DNA from: Patescibacteria group bacterium
GTDB lineage: Bacteria; Patescibacteriota; Patescibacteriia; UBA9570; JAHJKD01
Assembly: GCA_041660885.1 (NCBI GenBank)
Contig: JBAZVM010000005.1
Coordinates: 23,568-87,567 of the forward strand
DNA: 64,000 nucleotides
Direction: 5' to 3'
Positions 33,247 to 41,263 of this stretch are shown piece after piece (position 1 is the stretch's first letter; every line of letters starts with the position of its first letter). A model generated the notes under the pieces. That model saw only the letters and a program-made list of their open reading frames with translations, searched no databases and was not told the origin of the DNA. The position numbers were made by a program, and so were the translations under genes.

Positions 33247-33630
33247 GGGGATGTTTATAATCGATAGAAGACGTTCCTTAATAATCTTCCAAGCCAAGCG
33301 CCGGACTTGTAAACTGGCAAATTATAAGTGCAAACTTATTCAATTCAGCTAAGGAAAAAGTGAGAGCTTTCGCTCAAAGCTTTGCTTTAGCTCCTTCTGT
33401 CGCCTAATTCGCGACAGCATCCGATTTTCTTTCGCCTCAAAGGAAAAACCCGGGTGTAAAAATCGAGGCTTATTTCCGGTTTTGCCTAGAATCGGATTGA
33501 AATCATCAGGCTCGGCTTTATAATTTTTCGTTTGTTTTCAAGTTATAAAGCTTAAATATTAAGCAAAATACGCTTGGTAAACGATTATTCTGGTTTCTTC
33601 TAGACGCGGGCGTAATACCCGCCATCTCCA
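33247..33630 (+). ncRNA. ssrA: tmRNA (SsrA)
   Basis: 5' GGGGATG pairs with 3' CATCTCC (33623..33629), including a G3:U wobble. T-arm GCGGG-cgtaata-CCCGC, discriminator A at 33630, CCA not encoded. Internal tag frame GCA AAC ... GCC TAA (33330..33407). Immediately follows smpB. Confidence 0.85.
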
Positions 33631-33678
33631 CACGAACTTATCTAAAAACAAATTTCAAATAATAAAAGCGAGTTAATA

Positions 33679-35791: not shown

Positions 35792-35870
35792 GGGGGCGTA
35801 GCTCAGTTTTGGTTAGAGCGTCGCACTGTCACTGCGAAGGTCGCGGGTTCGAGTCCCGTCGCTCCCGCCA
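35792..35870 (+). tRNA. tRNA-Asp (GTC)
   Basis: Manual fold: acceptor GGGGGCG/CGCTCCC, D-arm GCTC..GAGC, anticodon stem TCGCA/TGCGA with loop CTGTCAC, T-arm GCGGG-TTCGAGT-CCCGT, discriminator G. CCA is encoded. Confidence 0.9.
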
Positions 35871-35875
35871 TTTAT

Positions 35876-37408
35876 ATGGCCATAAAAAAAGTTGTTCTAT
35901 TATCCATCTTTGTTCTATTATTTTCATTTAGCGCGCGAGCGGAAACCGCCACCAATTGGCCGGTAGATTTTGCTAATCCCCAAACTTTGTTAAGCTCGGC
36001 TTTTGGCCCGCGCTTAAAAGCATCGGAAGATTACCGCTACGATTATCATCGCGGCATAGACATTCCCGGTGAAACCACGGATGAAGCCATATCCATTAAA
36101 GACGGTACGGTTTACCGCATTTACGCGGAAGGAGACCCGGATTCCACTTACCCCAACAGCGGCAATATCGTTATCGTGAAACACCAATTTGATGAGCCCT
36201 ATTCTTTCCATGGCATATCGCATACTATTTATTATTCTTTATACGCGCATTTATCTAGCTTTGCCGAGGGCTTGGAAGAAGGAGACACGGTTACAGCCGG
36301 CCAAACCGTGGGCTATATCGGTAAAAGCGGAACAACCGATTTTTTGCATCTTCATTTTGAAATACGCGTGGGCACCACTTGCTCCATGGAAATTGAATGC
36401 AACCATGGATACGACCCGCATATTAATCCCTTGAATTTTTTACCTTATACGCAAGAAAACGAAGCCACAGGATCGGCTAGCGTCAGCGGTGCGGATGTTC
36501 TTACTTCCATAACTATTCCATACGATGAGTTAGATTTAAATTCTTTTCGCGTGCGCACTTATAACAGCAATGACACGCTCTTGCAAAACAAACTGCTAAA
36601 TTTCGACACAAGAGAAGGTTCAGACCCCTCCTCTGATGAAACGCTAGACCAGCAAGAATATAATAATATTTATATTGATCCGGAAATTTTTACTTCATCA
36701 AGCGAAGAGGAAACCATGAATGTCACTTTTGAAAATACTATTTTTGATAATGTGCGAAGAGTTAATATACAAATAAAAGATATAAACGGTAATACCTTGT
36801 TCAGTGATGATATATATATTAGTTCCGAAGGGGTAGTAGTGGAAGAACCGGAGCCAGAACCTGATCCGTATGATCCGGAAAACGGAGAAACCGATCCTTT
36901 ATACGGAATTATTACGAATATAGATAAACAAGAAGAAAATCTATTAATCACCTATGAAGACGGCACCGAGCATATTATTACTCCGTTTATCAATAACGCG
37001 GATTTTGCATACCAATTAAGCACGGATAAATATCGTTTGCTGACAACCAACGGTAAATTTATCCGCGTATTTAAAAACAGCGTAAAGGTAGACCAAAAAA
37101 AAATACATAAAAAATATTTGCCAAAACGATCATATAAAATGAAAGTGGCTAATTTTTATTCCGCATACGATAATGTTATTTTCGCTAGCAAAAAACAAAC
37201 AACGGGAAAAATTGCCGTCTTTCGTTTGGATAGCGCAGACCAACTGATAAAAAGACAAATTAGAAACACTTTATTTCATCTGGGAAAGCTGAATCGACTT
37301 AAAATTATTCTGGATAAAAAAAGATTTAAAGTTATCGTGCGAAAAAATCATTTAAATTACAATTACGTTTGGCGTATTCGCGCTAATGGCACGCTAATAA
37401 AAAAATAA
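35876..37408 (+). CDS. secreted M23 (LytM-type) peptidase with Lys-rich C-terminal module
   Basis: Signal peptide. YHRGIDI and FLHLHFEI metal-binding motifs. The C-terminal 156 aa are homologous to the tail of the 17837..20056 product. Confidence 0.85.
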   Translation: MAIKKVVLLSIFVLLFSFSARAETATNWPVDFANPQTLLSSAFGPRLKASEDYRYDYHRGIDIPGETTDEAISIKDGTVYRIYAEGDPDSTYPNSGNIVIVKHQFDEPYSFHGISHTIYYSLYAHLSSFAEGLEEGDTVTAGQTVGYIGKSGTTDFLHLHFEIRVGTTCSMEIECNHGYDPHINPLNFLPYTQENEATGSASVSGADVLTSITIPYDELDLNSFRVRTYNSNDTLLQNKLLNFDTREGSDPSSDETLDQQEYNNIYIDPEIFTSSSEEETMNVTFENTIFDNVRRVNIQIKDINGNTLFSDDIYISSEGVVVEEPEPEPDPYDPENGETDPLYGIITNIDKQEENLLITYEDGTEHIITPFINNADFAYQLSTDKYRLLTTNGKFIRVFKNSVKVDQKKIHKKYLPKRSYKMKVANFYSAYDNVIFASKKQTTGKIAVFRLDSADQLIKRQIRNTLFHLGKLNRLKIILDKKRFKVIVRKNHLNYNYVWRIRANGTLIKK

Positions 37409-37409
37409 T

Positions 37410-38093
37410 ATGTGCGGAAGATACTCGTTAATATCCTCGCTAAACGAATTAAAAGAGCGTTTTAACGTAAAAAAAGTTTCCGGCCAATTAACGCCGAGAT
37501 ATAATGCCGCGCCCAGCCAGCAACTACCTTTAATCGCGGGCGATGCCCCACAAAGAATTGTGCTAGCTGAATGGGGCATTATTCCTGCTTGGATGAAAGA
37601 CGAAAAAAGTATAAAGCGCCTGATCAACGCCAAAGCCGAGACTATAGCGGAAAAACGTACCTTTAAGCAAGCCGCGGAAAAAAGAAGGTGCTTAATAATT
37701 GCTGACGGCTTTTACGAATGGGCTGAAATTCCGGGCACCAAAAAAAAGCAGCCTTTTCGCCTTACCCTGAAAAACAACTCCCCTTTTGCAATGGCCGGAA
37801 TTTATGAATTAAAAAAAGATAAAAATAAACAATATATGGAGTTTGCCATTATTACGGTCTCGGCCAATGCTTTAATGGCTAAAATTCATAATCGCATGCC
37901 CGCTATTCTGCTACCCGAAGATGAAAAACGCTGACTTGATCCAAATACTACCATCAAGCAAGCCCTCACTTCTTTAAAGCCATATCCGGCCAATAAAATG
38001 AAGGCTCTGCCGGTTTCTAATCTGGTAAATTCCCCTGCCAACGAAGGCCCGAGTGTGATAAAAACGCTGGATACTTTGCCTATTTTTAAGTAG
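37410..38093 (+). pseudogene. SOS-response-associated peptidase (SRAP/YedK) interrupted by an in-frame TGA
   Basis: MCGRYSL N-terminus (catalytic Cys2), INAKAET, FYEW. The frame stops at TGA 37932..37934 (..LLPEDEKR*) and continues in the same frame with LDPNTTIKQALTSLKPYPANKMKALPVSNLVNSPANEGP..., the normal SRAP C-terminus, to TAG 38091..38093. Confidence 0.75.
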
Positions 38094-39306
38094 CCTGCCC
38101 CAAACAAGGCAAGCCGATAAACTGTCTTTCTTTTTTTTGTTTTTCCATTACCGGCAAACTGCTTCCCAAAAAAACAATATGCTTGCCGTATTTTTGGCTG
38201 AGGTCATCCACGGCTTCGTAAACCCGCCCTATTTTTTCTATGGTCAACGGTTTTTCAAATAAATTCATTTGCAAGCTAAAACGCGATTGCAAAGAAAAAA
38301 TCACTACTCCCGTGGCGCGGTAAACAAAAGAAGAGGAAAACAATTTTAAAAAAGCTTGCTTAGCCGGGCCCATGGCTTCATTGGGAAAACAAGTGGCGCG
38401 ATTAAAGCGTACTTCCATGGTGCGGTAGCGGAAATCATTCGTTTTTAAAAAAATCATCATTTTTTTGGCTGCCAGATTATGGCGCCGCGCTTTAATAAAG
38501 GCGTTTTCCACGTTCTTGGAAAGCTGGGCAAAAACATATTGAGCCTCGGAAGAAGGCGGAGAAAAAGTTTTGGTTTTGCCAATGCTTTTATATTCGTCTT
38601 TTTCTTGAGTGGAAACCTGATAAACTCTTTCCTCGTTAAGCTCGCGCCATATTTCTTTGTATGGCTTGCTTAATTTTTTATCGATAAAATCTTCCGAAGC
38701 CTGGGCGTATTGCCAGGCGTTGTAAACACGGAACTTATTTAAATAAGCCGCGGTTTGCCGGCCAATGCCCCAAAGATCTTCCAAGCTCGTCTTTTTTAAA
38801 AAGTCCGGACGGTTATAATAAGAAATTTCCGTAAAGCCTGATGGTTTTTTCCACTTGGAAGCTATTTTTGTCAGCACTTTAGTGCTGGCCAAACCAACGG
38901 AAACCGTTATGCCCAGCTCCTTTTCTATGGCGTTTTTAACGCTTATGGCGATTTGAGCGTAGCTTTTGTGCAAAGGACGGCGTAAACCCGTTATATCGGC
39001 AAAAGCTTCGTCTATGGAGTATTCTTCCACTTGCGAAGTATAGCGTCTTAGAATATCAAACATGCGTTTGGAAAATAAGCTGTATGTTTCATAGTGCGAG
39101 GGCAGAATAATGGCCTCGGGGCATATTTTTTTTACATCCCAAAGCGGCACTCCCCTTTTGATGCCTAATTTTTTGGCTTCGTAGCTGGCCGCGGAAACTA
39201 TCTTTCGCTCGAGCCCGGTGACGACGGGTTTACCGCGATACGCCGGATTTATAGCTTGCTCGCAAGAAGCGAAAAAAGCATCGGCATCTACATGGATTAA
39301 AGGCAT
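38086..39306 (-). CDS. Y-family translesion DNA polymerase, UmuC/Pol V-like
   Basis: MPLIHVDADAFFASCEQ and EEYSIDEAFADITG resemble UmuC (FYASCE, YSIDEAFCDLTG). 406 aa. Starts 3 nt after the lexA stop. Confidence 0.88.
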   Translation of the reverse strand: MPLIHVDADAFFASCEQAINPAYRGKPVVTGLERKIVSAASYEAKKLGIKRGVPLWDVKKICPEAIILPSHYETYSLFSKRMFDILRRYTSQVEEYSIDEAFADITGLRRPLHKSYAQIAISVKNAIEKELGITVSVGLASTKVLTKIASKWKKPSGFTEISYYNRPDFLKKTSLEDLWGIGRQTAAYLNKFRVYNAWQYAQASEDFIDKKLSKPYKEIWRELNEERVYQVSTQEKDEYKSIGKTKTFSPPSSEAQYVFAQLSKNVENAFIKARRHNLAAKKMMIFLKTNDFRYRTMEVRFNRATCFPNEAMGPAKQAFLKLFSSSFVYRATGVVIFSLQSRFSLQMNLFEKPLTIEKIGRVYEAVDDLSQKYGKHIVFLGSSLPVMEKQKKERQFIGLPCLGQAT

Positions 39307-39309
39307 AAA

Positions 39310-39882
39310 TTAATATTTTCTTACCACGCCAACCACCACGCCGCCCAATAATAAATTATTTTTGGGGTAAATGGGCTTGAATTTCGGATTCTCGGGCAGA
39401 AGAGCTATTTTCTTTTCGGTTTTATATAATCGTTTAATGGTCCATTCGTTGTCTATGCTGGCGATAATAATATCCCCGTGCTTAGCCTCCTTGCCGCGTT
39501 CCACTATTACCAGATCCCCGGGCCTGATGCCGGCGTTAATCATGGAATTGCCGGATACCTTCAATAAAAAAGAGGCTTGCTTATTTTTAATGAGATAGTC
39601 GTCTAAGCTGATGGCGTCGGCCAATTCTTCTTCCGCGGGCGTGGGAAAGCCGGCTTCTATGTTCCCCAATATTTTTACGCCAAATAAAGAAGCCGCGGGC
39701 ATTAAACGGCCGGCTTCATCTTTATTTATAAATCCCGCTTCTATGATTTTATTTATAAAACGAAAAACAGCGTTTTTAGACTTTACCTTAAACAAAACAA
39801 GCATTTCCGCGTAAGACGGCAAACGCTTGTTTTTTTCGTAAAATTGGCGCAAAACCAAAATTCTTTTATGCAGTTTATCCAT
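39310..39882 (-). CDS. lexA: LexA-family repressor (wHTH plus S24 peptidase)
   Basis: N-terminal wHTH-like region, putative cleavage site EAG/FP, VSGNSMINAGIRPGDLVIVE (Ser) and EWTIKRL (Lys). Start moved to MDKLHKRIL (ATG 39882) because the promoter lies inside the longer track ORF. Confidence 0.85.
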   Translation of the reverse strand: MDKLHKRILVLRQFYEKNKRLPSYAEMLVLFKVKSKNAVFRFINKIIEAGFINKDEAGRLMPAASLFGVKILGNIEAGFPTPAEEELADAISLDDYLIKNKQASFLLKVSGNSMINAGIRPGDLVIVERGKEAKHGDIIIASIDNEWTIKRLYKTEKKIALLPENPKFKPIYPKNNLLLGGVVVGVVRKY

Positions 39883-39888
39883 GGAGAC

Positions 39889-39918
39889 ATTATAAGTGAA
39901 CGAACGTTCACTTGTCAA
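39889..39918 (-). promoter_or_regulatory. lexA promoter with embedded SOS (Cheo-type) box
   Basis: Minus strand reads TTGACA (39918..39913), AGTGAACGTTCGTTCACT (39912..39895), TATAAT (39894..39889), gtctcc, ATG. The spacer holds GAAC-N4-GTTC within a 7+7 perfect inverted repeat. Confidence 0.75.
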
Positions 39919-39940
39919 CCCCGTACCGAATGGTGCGGGG
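39919..39940 (-). terminator. hairpin after the 144-aa gene
   Basis: Minus strand reads CCCCGCACC-attc-GGTACGGGG (9-bp stem, one mismatch). No T-run; abuts the lexA -35 box. Confidence 0.3.
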
Positions 39941-39962
39941 TCAAATGTCCCCTATTTACCTA

Positions 39963-40397
39963 TTAAGCTATAGGATAATTATTTTCTTGCAAACTTTGGG
40001 CAATGGCCTTTTTTTGGAAAAATCCGGCAAAACGGTATACTTCGTTGGTTTTAGTGGTAAACTCAAGGCCTAAAAAATTCTTTTTTACGCCGGTGATATC
40101 TGTTTTATTGATAATGCGATACATAGGATATTTTCTTAATTTATTCTGCGTTTCCGGGCTTAATGAATTAAAATCCGGTTCTTTGGAAATATCTTGCACC
40201 TCTTCTTTTTTCTTCTGCAATCCGGTGATAGCCGCACCGACCGCGGCGCCCACAATGCCGCCAACCGCTCCGCCGACTCTTACGTTCGGGTCATCTTTAA
40301 CTCCGGTAAAATAAATTTTATCGGGATTAATTAGAATCAAACCGTCCATGTAAGTTTTGTTGTTGAAGGCCACCCTTCCTCTTTTTAAAAATTCCAT
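39963..40397 (-). CDS. hypothetical protein with glycine-zipper segment
   Basis: VGGAVGGIVGAAVGAAITG motif. 144 aa. Confidence 0.6.
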   Translation of the reverse strand: MEFLKRGRVAFNNKTYMDGLILINPDKIYFTGVKDDPNVRVGGAVGGIVGAAVGAAITGLQKKKEEVQDISKEPDFNSLSPETQNKLRKYPMYRIINKTDITGVKKNFLGLEFTTKTNEVYRFAGFFQKKAIAQSLQENNYPIA

Positions 40398-40410
40398 AGT
40401 TTTTTGTTGA

Positions 40411-40704
40411 TTAATTATTTAAAAAATAATAAGCCAAATAAACTAACCCGGCTTGTATGAATAATACCAAAAAAAGCCAAAATTGAAAAGAAATCTTCTT
40501 TGTTTTATGGCGAAAAAAATACATGGCGGCTAAGGCTCCCGGGCTTCCGAAAAATAAAGCCAAAAGCAACAAAGCTTTTTCCGAAATCCGCCGAGAATTG
40601 GCTGACGCCGAAGTTTTATCTAAACCATAGACGCAAAAAACCGCGATATTATAAATACCTAGTATAAGCAGAATCCAATGAATATATGTGAGGTCGCTTA
40701 GCAT
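40411..40704 (-). CDS. DUF1294 membrane protein
   Basis: VFCVYGLDKTSASANSRRISEKALLLLALFFGSPGALAAMYFFRHKTKK. Start trimmed to ATG 40704, 4 nt after the efp stop. Confidence 0.75.
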   Translation of the reverse strand: MLSDLTYIHWILLILGIYNIAVFCVYGLDKTSASANSRRISEKALLLLALFFGSPGALAAMYFFRHKTKKISFQFWLFLVLFIQAGLVYLAYYFLNN

Positions 40705-40708
40705 TAAA

Positions 40709-41263
40709 TTAAACGCGGGAAACGTATTCTCCGGATTCCGTATTAATGCGGATGGTATCGCCTTGATTAACAAACAGCGGAACGCTGATTTGCGCGCCTG
40801 TTTCTATGGTGACGGTTTTAAAGGTATTGGCCGCGGTATTGCCTTTCACTCCCGGAGGGGCTTGCGTGATTTTAAAATCCATTTTTGGAGGAAGCTGAAT
40901 GCTGAATAAATTTTCTCCCAAAAATAAGCCATCAACTTGGCATTCTTCTTTCATCCATTTTTCCAAGTCTCCCACCGCATCGTTATTAAGCTGGTATTGC
41001 TCGTATTTTTCATCCATGAAATAAAAATAATTTTCGTCTTTATAAAGATACTGCAAACGCTTATGGATAAGATCGGCCGCTTCGAATTGTTCGCCGGATT
41101 TGAAAGTCATTTCCAACATTTTGGCATTCTTTAAATTCTTTATGCGCGTGCGCGTAAAAGAAGTTCCTTTGCCCGGTTTGACATGCTGAAAACCGACAAT
41201 CAGCCAAGGATCATTTTTAAACATAATAGCCAAGCCATTCTTGAAATCAGAGGTAGAAATCAT
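40709..41263 (-). CDS. efp: elongation factor P
   Basis: MISTSDFKNGLAIMFKNDPWLIVGFQHVKPGKGTSFTRTRIKNL. 184 aa. Confidence 0.95.
   Translation of the reverse strand: MISTSDFKNGLAIMFKNDPWLIVGFQHVKPGKGTSFTRTRIKNLKNAKMLEMTFKSGEQFEAADLIHKRLQYLYKDENYFYFMDEKYEQYQLNNDAVGDLEKWMKEECQVDGLFLGENLFSIQLPPKMDFKITQAPPGVKGNTAANTFKTVTIETGAQISVPLFVNQGDTIRINTESGEYVSRV

Follow-up and report, generated by a model that had tools for sequence, protein, structure and literature searches.

A TGA codon in place of an invariant tryptophan codon in an otherwise intact SRAP/YedK-family gene of a Patescibacteria group bacterium: a probable young opal allele

SRAP proteins covalently shield abasic sites in single-stranded DNA by means of an N-terminal cysteine. 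Here, we describe a SRAP/YedK-family gene interrupted by a single in-frame TGA in a stretch of 64,000 nucleotides (nt) from Patescibacteria group bacterium (GenBank assembly GCA_041660885.1, contig JBAZVM010000005.1, positions 23,568 to 87,567 of the forward strand; the whole stretch is called the window below, and positions are counted from its first letter). The open reading frame (ORF) lies on the + strand at 37410..37934 and encodes 174 amino acids (aa; MCGRYSL...LLPEDEKR, C-terminal end HNRMPAILLPEDEKR) before a TGA at 37932-37934 in the context CGC TGA CTT. Beyond the TGA the same frame (LDPNTTIKQALTSLKPYPANKMKALPVSNLVNSPANEGPSVIKTLDTLPIFK) stays open up to a TAG at 38091-38093, so that the read-through product comprises 227 codons plus stop. 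By our own estimate a 52-codon open extension has about a 3% chance at the local base composition, which by itself is mildly unusual; the homology of the segment after the TGA to SRAP C-termini is not in doubt. A preliminary description, made from the letters alone, had joined the two parts into a SRAP of about 227 aa separated by one changed tryptophan codon, and both the codon count and an end-to-end Pfam match bear this out; one G-to-A change (TGG to TGA) suffices to account for the stop. The gene lacks the uninterrupted frame of a SRAP enzyme, since its frame breaks at this TGA. Internal restart at the next in-frame ATG (37998) was considered and rejected: the resulting peptide would have just 31 aa, and inspection of the letters before that ATG showed nothing resembling a Shine-Dalgarno sequence.

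Residues 1-209 of the read-through product match the Pfam SRAP profile (PF02586) over positions 1-214 of 214 (E = 2e-69; 233.7 bits against a cut-off of 27.1), with a tryptophan placed at codon 175, and the match is full-length only with that codon read through. The protein starts MCGR, with Cys2 right after the initiating methionine, and Asn73, Glu103 and His160, which align to N75, E105 and H160 of Escherichia coli YedK, occupy invariant columns among 25 sequences; all of these residues lie upstream of the TGA. An AlphaFold model of the full-length protein, built with 25 aligned sequences, reached a predicted local distance difference test score (pLDDT) of 89.3 and a predicted template modelling (pTM) score of 0.88, and the top Foldseek matches of the model were the HMCES SRAP domain and E. 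coli YedK (E ~1e-18, template modelling scores 0.80-0.82). The SRAP fold, a beta-barrel with a flat sheet that carries Cys2, is accordingly present in the predicted model.

All 24 closest database proteins have tryptophan at codon 175. Among 150 homologous loci, drawn from genome and metagenome collections and aligned by tblastn, 148 have tryptophan there and two have tyrosine. The residue aligns with the tryptophan of ..AREWM.. in YedK, ..SKWLD.. in human HMCES and ..EKWLN.. in BT_1218, in keeping with the earlier statement that SRAP proteins carry Trp at this position. No homolog that ends at codon 175 was found among the 24 closest proteins and the 150 loci, and natural truncation was rejected for the four loci whose matches end near residue 176 (L053, L068, L148 and L103), each of which reads through a TGG into a divergent C-terminus. 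Ortholog comparison, proposed as a check in the preliminary description, thus turned up no ortholog that naturally terminates here, and the closest relative found, described below, has TGG at this codon.

The 174-aa product would keep Cys2, Asn73, Glu103, His160 and the equivalents of Loop45 and the beta-thumb of YedK. Truncation removes Trp175, the helix at 182-187, the strand at 197-202 and the PVSxxVNxPxN motif, which have pLDDT values of 90-97 in the model, together with the equivalents of YedK Arg206, Asn210 and Val211. In YedK these three residues touch DNA phosphates, and the last strand, beta12, belongs to the flat sheet (beta1, 2, 7, 8, 12) that positions the N-terminus and Cys2 (PMC6821365). 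Because the C-terminal helix and the last strand of the sheet that positions Cys2 are lost, the fragment is probably unstable or inactive. The earlier view that the truncated product keeps Cys2 holds, and its companion claim, that the C-terminal DNA-binding part is lost, is only partly right, most DNA-contact elements being kept; destabilisation of the fold is the more likely consequence. As a separate observation on this region, five homologs (P0005, P0009, P0010, P0017 and P0151; alignment A1, columns 207-225) that are about 80% identical to the window SRAP upstream of codon 175 have the conserved DNA-contact motif PVSxxVNxPxN replaced by ..PLNG.SQKRQINELPRL.., and this motif swap hints at relaxed or altered C-terminal constraint in their subclade.

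The exact 174-aa product is on record at NCBI (MFA6027813.1, 'Patescibacteria group bacterium'), JGI and Logan. A Logan contig (SRR18595301_114420) is 100% identical to window positions 35844..40934 (5,091 bases), TGA included, so that a 95.6-kb NCBI/JGI contig of a metagenome-assembled genome (MAG) and a 13.3-kb Logan contig, made by different assemblers, agree at the TGA, the Logan contig being unbroken at the site. Agreement of two assemblers excludes assembler error, not a population variant, and the reads are possibly common to both. Two further contigs (Ga0172379_10071113, IMG 3300014208, and ERZ27249449 k141_505869) are 100% identical to window positions 38286..41141 and end at window position 38286, about 190 nt short of the SRAP gene; the two break at almost the same two points, and the first places the organism in a municipal landfill metagenome (IMG 3300014208). 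Scans of genome and metagenome contig collections did not recover the window's own locus, and protein queries with the full-length, C-terminal 83-aa and N-terminal 103-aa sequences found no 227-aa version at least 90% identical that would represent a TGG allele.

These records bear on the possibility that the TGA is a sequencing or assembly artefact, or that a minor variant has entered the consensus, and that the real gene has TGG. The TGA is one base away from a functional codon, a MAG consensus cannot show allele frequencies, and in a related locus described below (L159) only one further mismatch exists in 1,415 bases, at a distance of 10 nt from a nonsense change, as may happen through local read error; artefacts or variants of this sort thus do occur in such data. 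The two assemblies are identical through the site, whereas a substantial TGG allele would usually give a bubble or a break. Since a second, independent assembler returned the identical sequence, an assembly artefact is unlikely, and we consider this explanation as a whole very improbable. The sequencing or assembly error named among the options of the preliminary description is accordingly disfavoured, and a recent nonsense mutation or population variant is the best supported of those options.

The closest relative found is a SRAP gene on Logan contig SRR22388163_24729 (L157:114-806), 89% identical in amino acids and 83% in nucleotides. Between the two genes the synonymous divergence (dS) is about 1.2 and the ratio of nonsynonymous to synonymous divergence (dN/dS) is 0.043 overall, 0.037 for codons 105-174 and 0.118 after codon 175. 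Codons 176-227 of the window gene are free of additional stops and frameshifts. Identity to homologs after codon 175, divided by that before it, has a median of 0.80 against 0.74 among intact homologs, and the derived changes after the stop, counted with 17 outgroups, number 5 in the window and 2 in L157, all of them conservative and at variable sites. Lineage-specific acceleration after the stop was not seen in the comparison with L157. The downstream part thus has neither the raised dN/dS nor the further lesions of relaxed constraint in a pseudogene, and the gene as a whole has what a young pseudogene has, one disabling lesion that hits a conserved site and is not shared by orthologs. From this lack of decay the TGG to TGA change is taken to be young; that the stop is very young and that the downstream part is still translated fit these data equally.

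L157 itself has one in-frame TGA, at the invariant W104 codon (GFYE-TGA-AE), the equivalent of YedK Trp106, which is strictly conserved and whose W106A substitution lowers binding of single-stranded DNA (PMC6821365). Its codon 175 is TGG, and each of the two relatives has TGG where the other has TGA. Gene callers split the L157 gene into two 103-aa proteins (P0149 and P0121). The window gene and L157 are thus independent cases of TGG to TGA at different invariant tryptophan codons in otherwise undamaged genes. When every single-base nonsense change in the SRAP gene was modelled under three mutation spectra, TGG to TGA made up 4-12% of nonsense changes and all TGA outcomes about 21%. Two of 8 SRAP tryptophan codons carry TGA, against none of about 218 in other window genes (Fisher p = 0.001).

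TGA acts as a stop elsewhere in the window. The 58 gene-like ORFs comprise 8 with TGA as the stop codon and 39-41 with TAA; TAG closes the remainder. The seven other TGA-ended genes encode a methyltransferase, MurJ, UppP/BacA, an amino-acid-kinase-family protein, a response regulator and two other ORFs; the Pfam domains of the TGA-ended genes are complete before the TGA, four of the seven ends are ATGA stop/start overlaps with the next gene, and no back-up stops were found near the TGA stops of the window. TGG occurs 221 times in 49 long ORFs, and the roughly 218 other tryptophan codons, in 57 other genes, are all TGG, so that 1 of about 222 tryptophan positions is TGA. A TGA splits none of the other real genes in the window, and reading TGA as sense joins no other real coding pair. 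The two earlier statements on this point, that TGA is a real stop in the methyltransferase, murJ and uppP genes with tryptophan encoded by TGG, and that there is no genome-wide recoding, are both upheld: because TGA serves as a functional stop in other genes of the window and the other tryptophan codons are all TGG, the genome is not recoded. As to stop contexts, gene ends in the window are skewed to TAA followed by T (28/58 genes), and TGA followed by C occurs at only two gene ends, one of them the internal stop of SRAP.

Code 25, in which UGA encodes glycine, is used in Gracilibacteria and Absconditabacteria. Some other decoding of the codon, as selenocysteine, as glycine (code 25) or completely as tryptophan (code 4), has to be weighed, given that Patescibacteria include lineages with UGA as glycine and one family with UGA as tryptophan (PMC13092985) and that L159 has a TGA at a glycine codon. 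The aligned residue is tryptophan or tyrosine in every homolog, never cysteine, selenocysteine or glycine. The pattern of code 4, or of the patescibacterial family JAKLIH01, with many in-frame UGAs at tryptophan columns and none at gene ends, was not found; code 4 was rejected on the TGA stops of the window and the absence there of any other in-frame TGA. No selenocysteine insertion sequence (SECIS) or stimulatory structure was seen after the TGA: positions 37900..38010 fold with a minimum free energy of -17.2 kcal/mol (z = -0.99; 37 of 200 shuffles at least as stable), and Rfam has no match near the TGA, its matches in the window being one tRNA and one tmRNA only. This shuffle-level folding, with the lack of an Rfam match, speaks against selenocysteine. 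Neither a release-factor GGQ motif nor a tRNA-Trp was found in the window or its Logan extensions; of two Logan contigs at the window edges, one alone (L160) extends past the edge, for about 2.8 kb, and no tRNA lies on either contig. Seven other genes ending in TGA, 221 TGG codons beside a single in-frame TGA, and the origin of the L159 codon as a strain difference from a code-11 relative with GGA leave other decoding with almost no credence.

The locus just named is one of several further disrupted SRAP genes. L159 (75% identical; L159:788-1414) has a TGA at invariant Gly100, where L002 (L002:4001-4687), 99.86% identical to it, has GGA in an intact 228-aa gene; the two differ at two mismatches in 1,415 bases, 10 nt apart, in codons 97 (CTC/ATC) and 100 (TGA/GGA). 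Either a nonsense allele at strain level or a local read error accounts for the L159 TGA; L159 being a two-mismatch variant of a GGA-bearing strain, its TGA is no sign of code 25, which was rejected. In Ga0265296_1106254 (L151:724-1047; protein P0151, also in ENA) an in-frame deletion of residues 67-169 joins ..WMKDEK to RWLNPN.. and removes the active-site Asn, Glu and His; it apparently arose between two ..DEK.. repeats. Outside the clade, L086:647-1306 has TAA at the catalytic Glu (GFY-TAA-W), and L158:1501-2100 has TAG at the tryptophan equivalent to W104; the latter gene adjoins a divergent pair of S24-peptidase and Y-family polymerase genes. Disrupted SRAP genes number 4 of 21 in the clade and 2 of 148 in other lineages (p = 0.002), a contrast that is not relied on here owing to ascertainment bias from fragment-targeted searches. 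Single young SRAP lesions are not rare, particularly in this Patescibacteria clade, although the clade figure is inflated by those searches.

Taken together, we consider it probable that at invariant Trp175 the gene carries a genuine opal allele of recent origin, loss-of-function or hypomorphic. The proposed course is a very young TGG to TGA (G-to-A) substitution in an otherwise intact SRAP gene; since UGA is a normal stop in this organism, most translation would end at codon 175, and tRNA-Trp (anticodon CCA) misreading UGA would be the sole source of full-length protein. Such misreading would restore the original residue, so that the allele may be a strong hypomorph rather than a clean null, as the general leakiness of UGA suggests. 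Opal alleles at tryptophan codons would be the least harmful nonsense alleles and hence the likeliest to be seen. SRAP may be a repair gene of conditional use on which selection is now weak, with loss-of-function alleles segregating or just fixed, and the recurrence of single young lesions in the clade fits such selection. Several points weigh against this explanation. Strong long-term purifying selection on the gene means that repeated recent loss needs explaining; two successive tryptophan-to-TGA changes have a probability of 0.002-0.015 (post hoc, n = 2); the three nonsense alleles of the clade are without exception TGA, where about 21% would be expected; and the two assemblies may derive from a single set of reads.

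Some of the same points speak for functionally relevant read-through, in which UGA is decoded as tryptophan often enough to supply a working SRAP at reduced dosage. The cause could be a tRNA-Trp variant (4-bp anticodon stem, G24A) or a weak release factor 2 (RF2), and the TGA alleles could be tolerated, or favoured, as an expression throttle on a maker of covalent DNA-protein crosslinks. The low chance of two independent TGG to TGA changes at invariant tryptophans with no other lesion, the enrichment of TGA at SRAP tryptophan codons, and the purifying selection that persists after both stops (0.037 and 0.118, with no lineage-specific acceleration) are consistent with it. The window stop also stands in the context UGA-C, the weakest termination context in E. 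coli. As precedents, the rate at which tRNA-Trp reads UGA ranges from 0.04 to 12% among species (PMC9481147, PMC10570021), and both tRNA-Trp(CCA) variants with a 4-bp stem and the full reassignment of UGA to tryptophan in JAKLIH01 have been described (PMC13092985). Against read-through, the stop codon differs between the window and L157, so that there is no conserved recoding site; significant downstream RNA structure is lacking; no other in-frame TGA occurs among the other tryptophan codons of the window; and TGA is a stop at normal frequency there, with ATGA overlaps and no nearby back-up stops. The L159 TGA falls on an invariant glycine, where insertion of tryptophan gives no rescue, and the outright deletion allele in L151 points to dispensability of SRAP in the clade. 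On balance we regard functional read-through as unlikely. The low-level read-through by tRNA-Trp offered in the preliminary description may still occur and gains some indirect support from L157; nothing supports its being regulated.

Less likely again is that UGA is decoded as tryptophan at a meaningful rate while still serving as a stop, an ambiguous intermediate toward reassignment of the JAKLIH01 type. SRAP, needed in trace amounts, may then be the first gene to show TGG to TGA drift, at W175 and W104, and either a weak RF2 or a variant of tRNA-Trp(CCA) may underlie such decoding.

The locus and its surroundings are listed in Table 1. The M23-peptidase-domain gene sits between the tRNA-Asp gene (5-nt gap) and SRAP (1-nt gap). 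It is absent from L157, where the tRNA 3' end lies about 90 nt upstream of the SRAP start (L157:1-113), and the difference looks like an insertion or deletion beside the tRNA gene; no recorded protein was identical to the 510-aa product in an exact look-up. On the other side, the SRAP end and the stop of the DNA polymerase IV (Pol IV)-like gene, dinB, overlap convergently by 8 nt, as they do in L157. The polymerase matches the Pol IV models of NCBIfam (about 1e-66) without reaching their equivalog cut-offs, and the neighbouring LexA scores 132.9 against the NCBIfam equivalog TIGR00498, above the cut-off of 110.95, with gene calls of 190 aa. Between the hexamers of the lexA promoter lies a GAAC-N4-GTTC box of the Cheo type, that is, of Gram-positive-type LexA, at 39898..39909; this GAACNNNNGTTC is the only one in the window, where 0.5 would be expected by chance, and a window scan found no LexA-type box upstream of SRAP. 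Because the lexA ATG (39882) lies only 7 nt past the -10 hexamer, the arrangement suggests that the lexA-dinB transcript is leaderless and autoregulated, and for the same reason, the promoter with its LexA box standing just upstream of this ATG, the start listed for the lexA ORF (TTG at 39918) is probably too far upstream.

Table 1. Features at and around the SRAP locus (window coordinates).
Feature	Position	Strand	Basis and remarks
tmRNA, full-length	33247..33633	+	Rfam, 102 bits; unreported by ARAGORN in the same window
tRNA-Asp(GTC)	35792..35870	+	ARAGORN, Rfam tRNA; conserved left neighbour of the SRAP locus
M23-peptidase-domain gene, 510 aa	35876..37408	+	Pfam Peptidase_M23; TAA ends 1 nt before the SRAP ATG
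SRAP/YedK-family codons 1-174	37410..37931	+	ORF list, Pfam SRAP; product if the TGA terminates is MFA6027813.1
In-frame TGA replacing the invariant Trp175 codon	37932..37934	+	Homologs; TGG in L157; TGA in Logan contig L001 (SRR18595301_114420)
SRAP codons 176-227 and ancestral TAG	37935..38093	+	Intact, conserved; translated on read-through only
Y-family DNA polymerase (Pol IV/DinB-like)	38086..39306	-	Pfam IMS, IMS_C, IMS_HHH; convergent with SRAP
lexA, 190 aa, ATG at 39882	39310..39882	-	Pfam Peptidase_S24; upstream of dinB, same operon
Promoter TTGACA-18-TATAAT	39889..39918	-	Promoter scan, 12/12 matches to the sigma-70 consensus

As a single event the TGA would carry little weight, one more fresh nonsense allele in a MAG, and its practical consequence is that MFA6027813.1 is annotated as an ordinary 174-aa protein although it is truncated. 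Value is added by recurrence, in sister lineages with a lone TGA each, at a different invariant tryptophan, in a gene under strong purifying selection, and by the context of a phylum in which UGA has been reassigned at least twice (to glycine, and to tryptophan in JAKLIH01). Should decoding of UGA as tryptophan prove elevated, the locus would capture in nature the ambiguous-intermediate stage of codon reassignment; otherwise it is an example of conditionally useful SOS-associated repair genes losing function in reduced genomes. Young nonsense alleles of the leaky opal type are known already, and the event belongs with them; the parallel tryptophan-to-TGA change in a sister lineage adds modest interest.

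Programmed read-through sites, such as that between the coat and A1 proteins of phage Q-beta, are retained among relatives and lengthen a protein that is already complete. The window gene resembles them in that UGA read by tRNA-Trp would give a second, C-terminally extended product; it differs in that its stop interrupts one globular domain and lacks conservation, the codon being TGG in L157 and encoding tryptophan or tyrosine at the 150 loci, and in that neither a downstream RNA structure nor a SECIS element accompanies it. Like E. coli YedK and human HMCES (PDB 6NUA, 6KBS, 6OE7), the window protein has the full-length Pfam match, the Met-Cys-Gly-Arg start, the predicted fold and the position of Trp175, and unlike them its frame is broken by a TGA at that invariant tryptophan. 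SRAP genes beside lexA-dinB are one of the described SOS neighbourhoods (PMC3765255), and the window gene likewise adjoins a lexA-dinB pair; it is convergent with the pair rather than in the same operon and is without a LexA box of its own. Similarity to JAKLIH01 (order UBA6257, Patescibacteriota, the same phylum as the window) and to Mycoplasmatales (code 4) lies in a UGA at a conserved tryptophan position. JAKLIH01, however, has no RF2, no gene ends at UGA and a tRNA with the anticodon UCA (PMC13092985), whereas in the window UGA ends seven other genes and stands at one tryptophan position in about 222. Variants of tRNA-Trp(CCA) whose anticodon stem has 4 bp raise read-through (PMC13092985). 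The known case that matches most directly is the leaky opal allele, in which UGA stands at a former UGG, the only nonsense change that gives back the wild-type residue when it is naturally read through; read-through by tRNA-Trp amounts to 0.04-0.08% in Pseudomonas and 2-12% in reporters in E. coli K-12 (PMC9481147, PMC10570021), rates that come from these two organisms and from no Patescibacterium.

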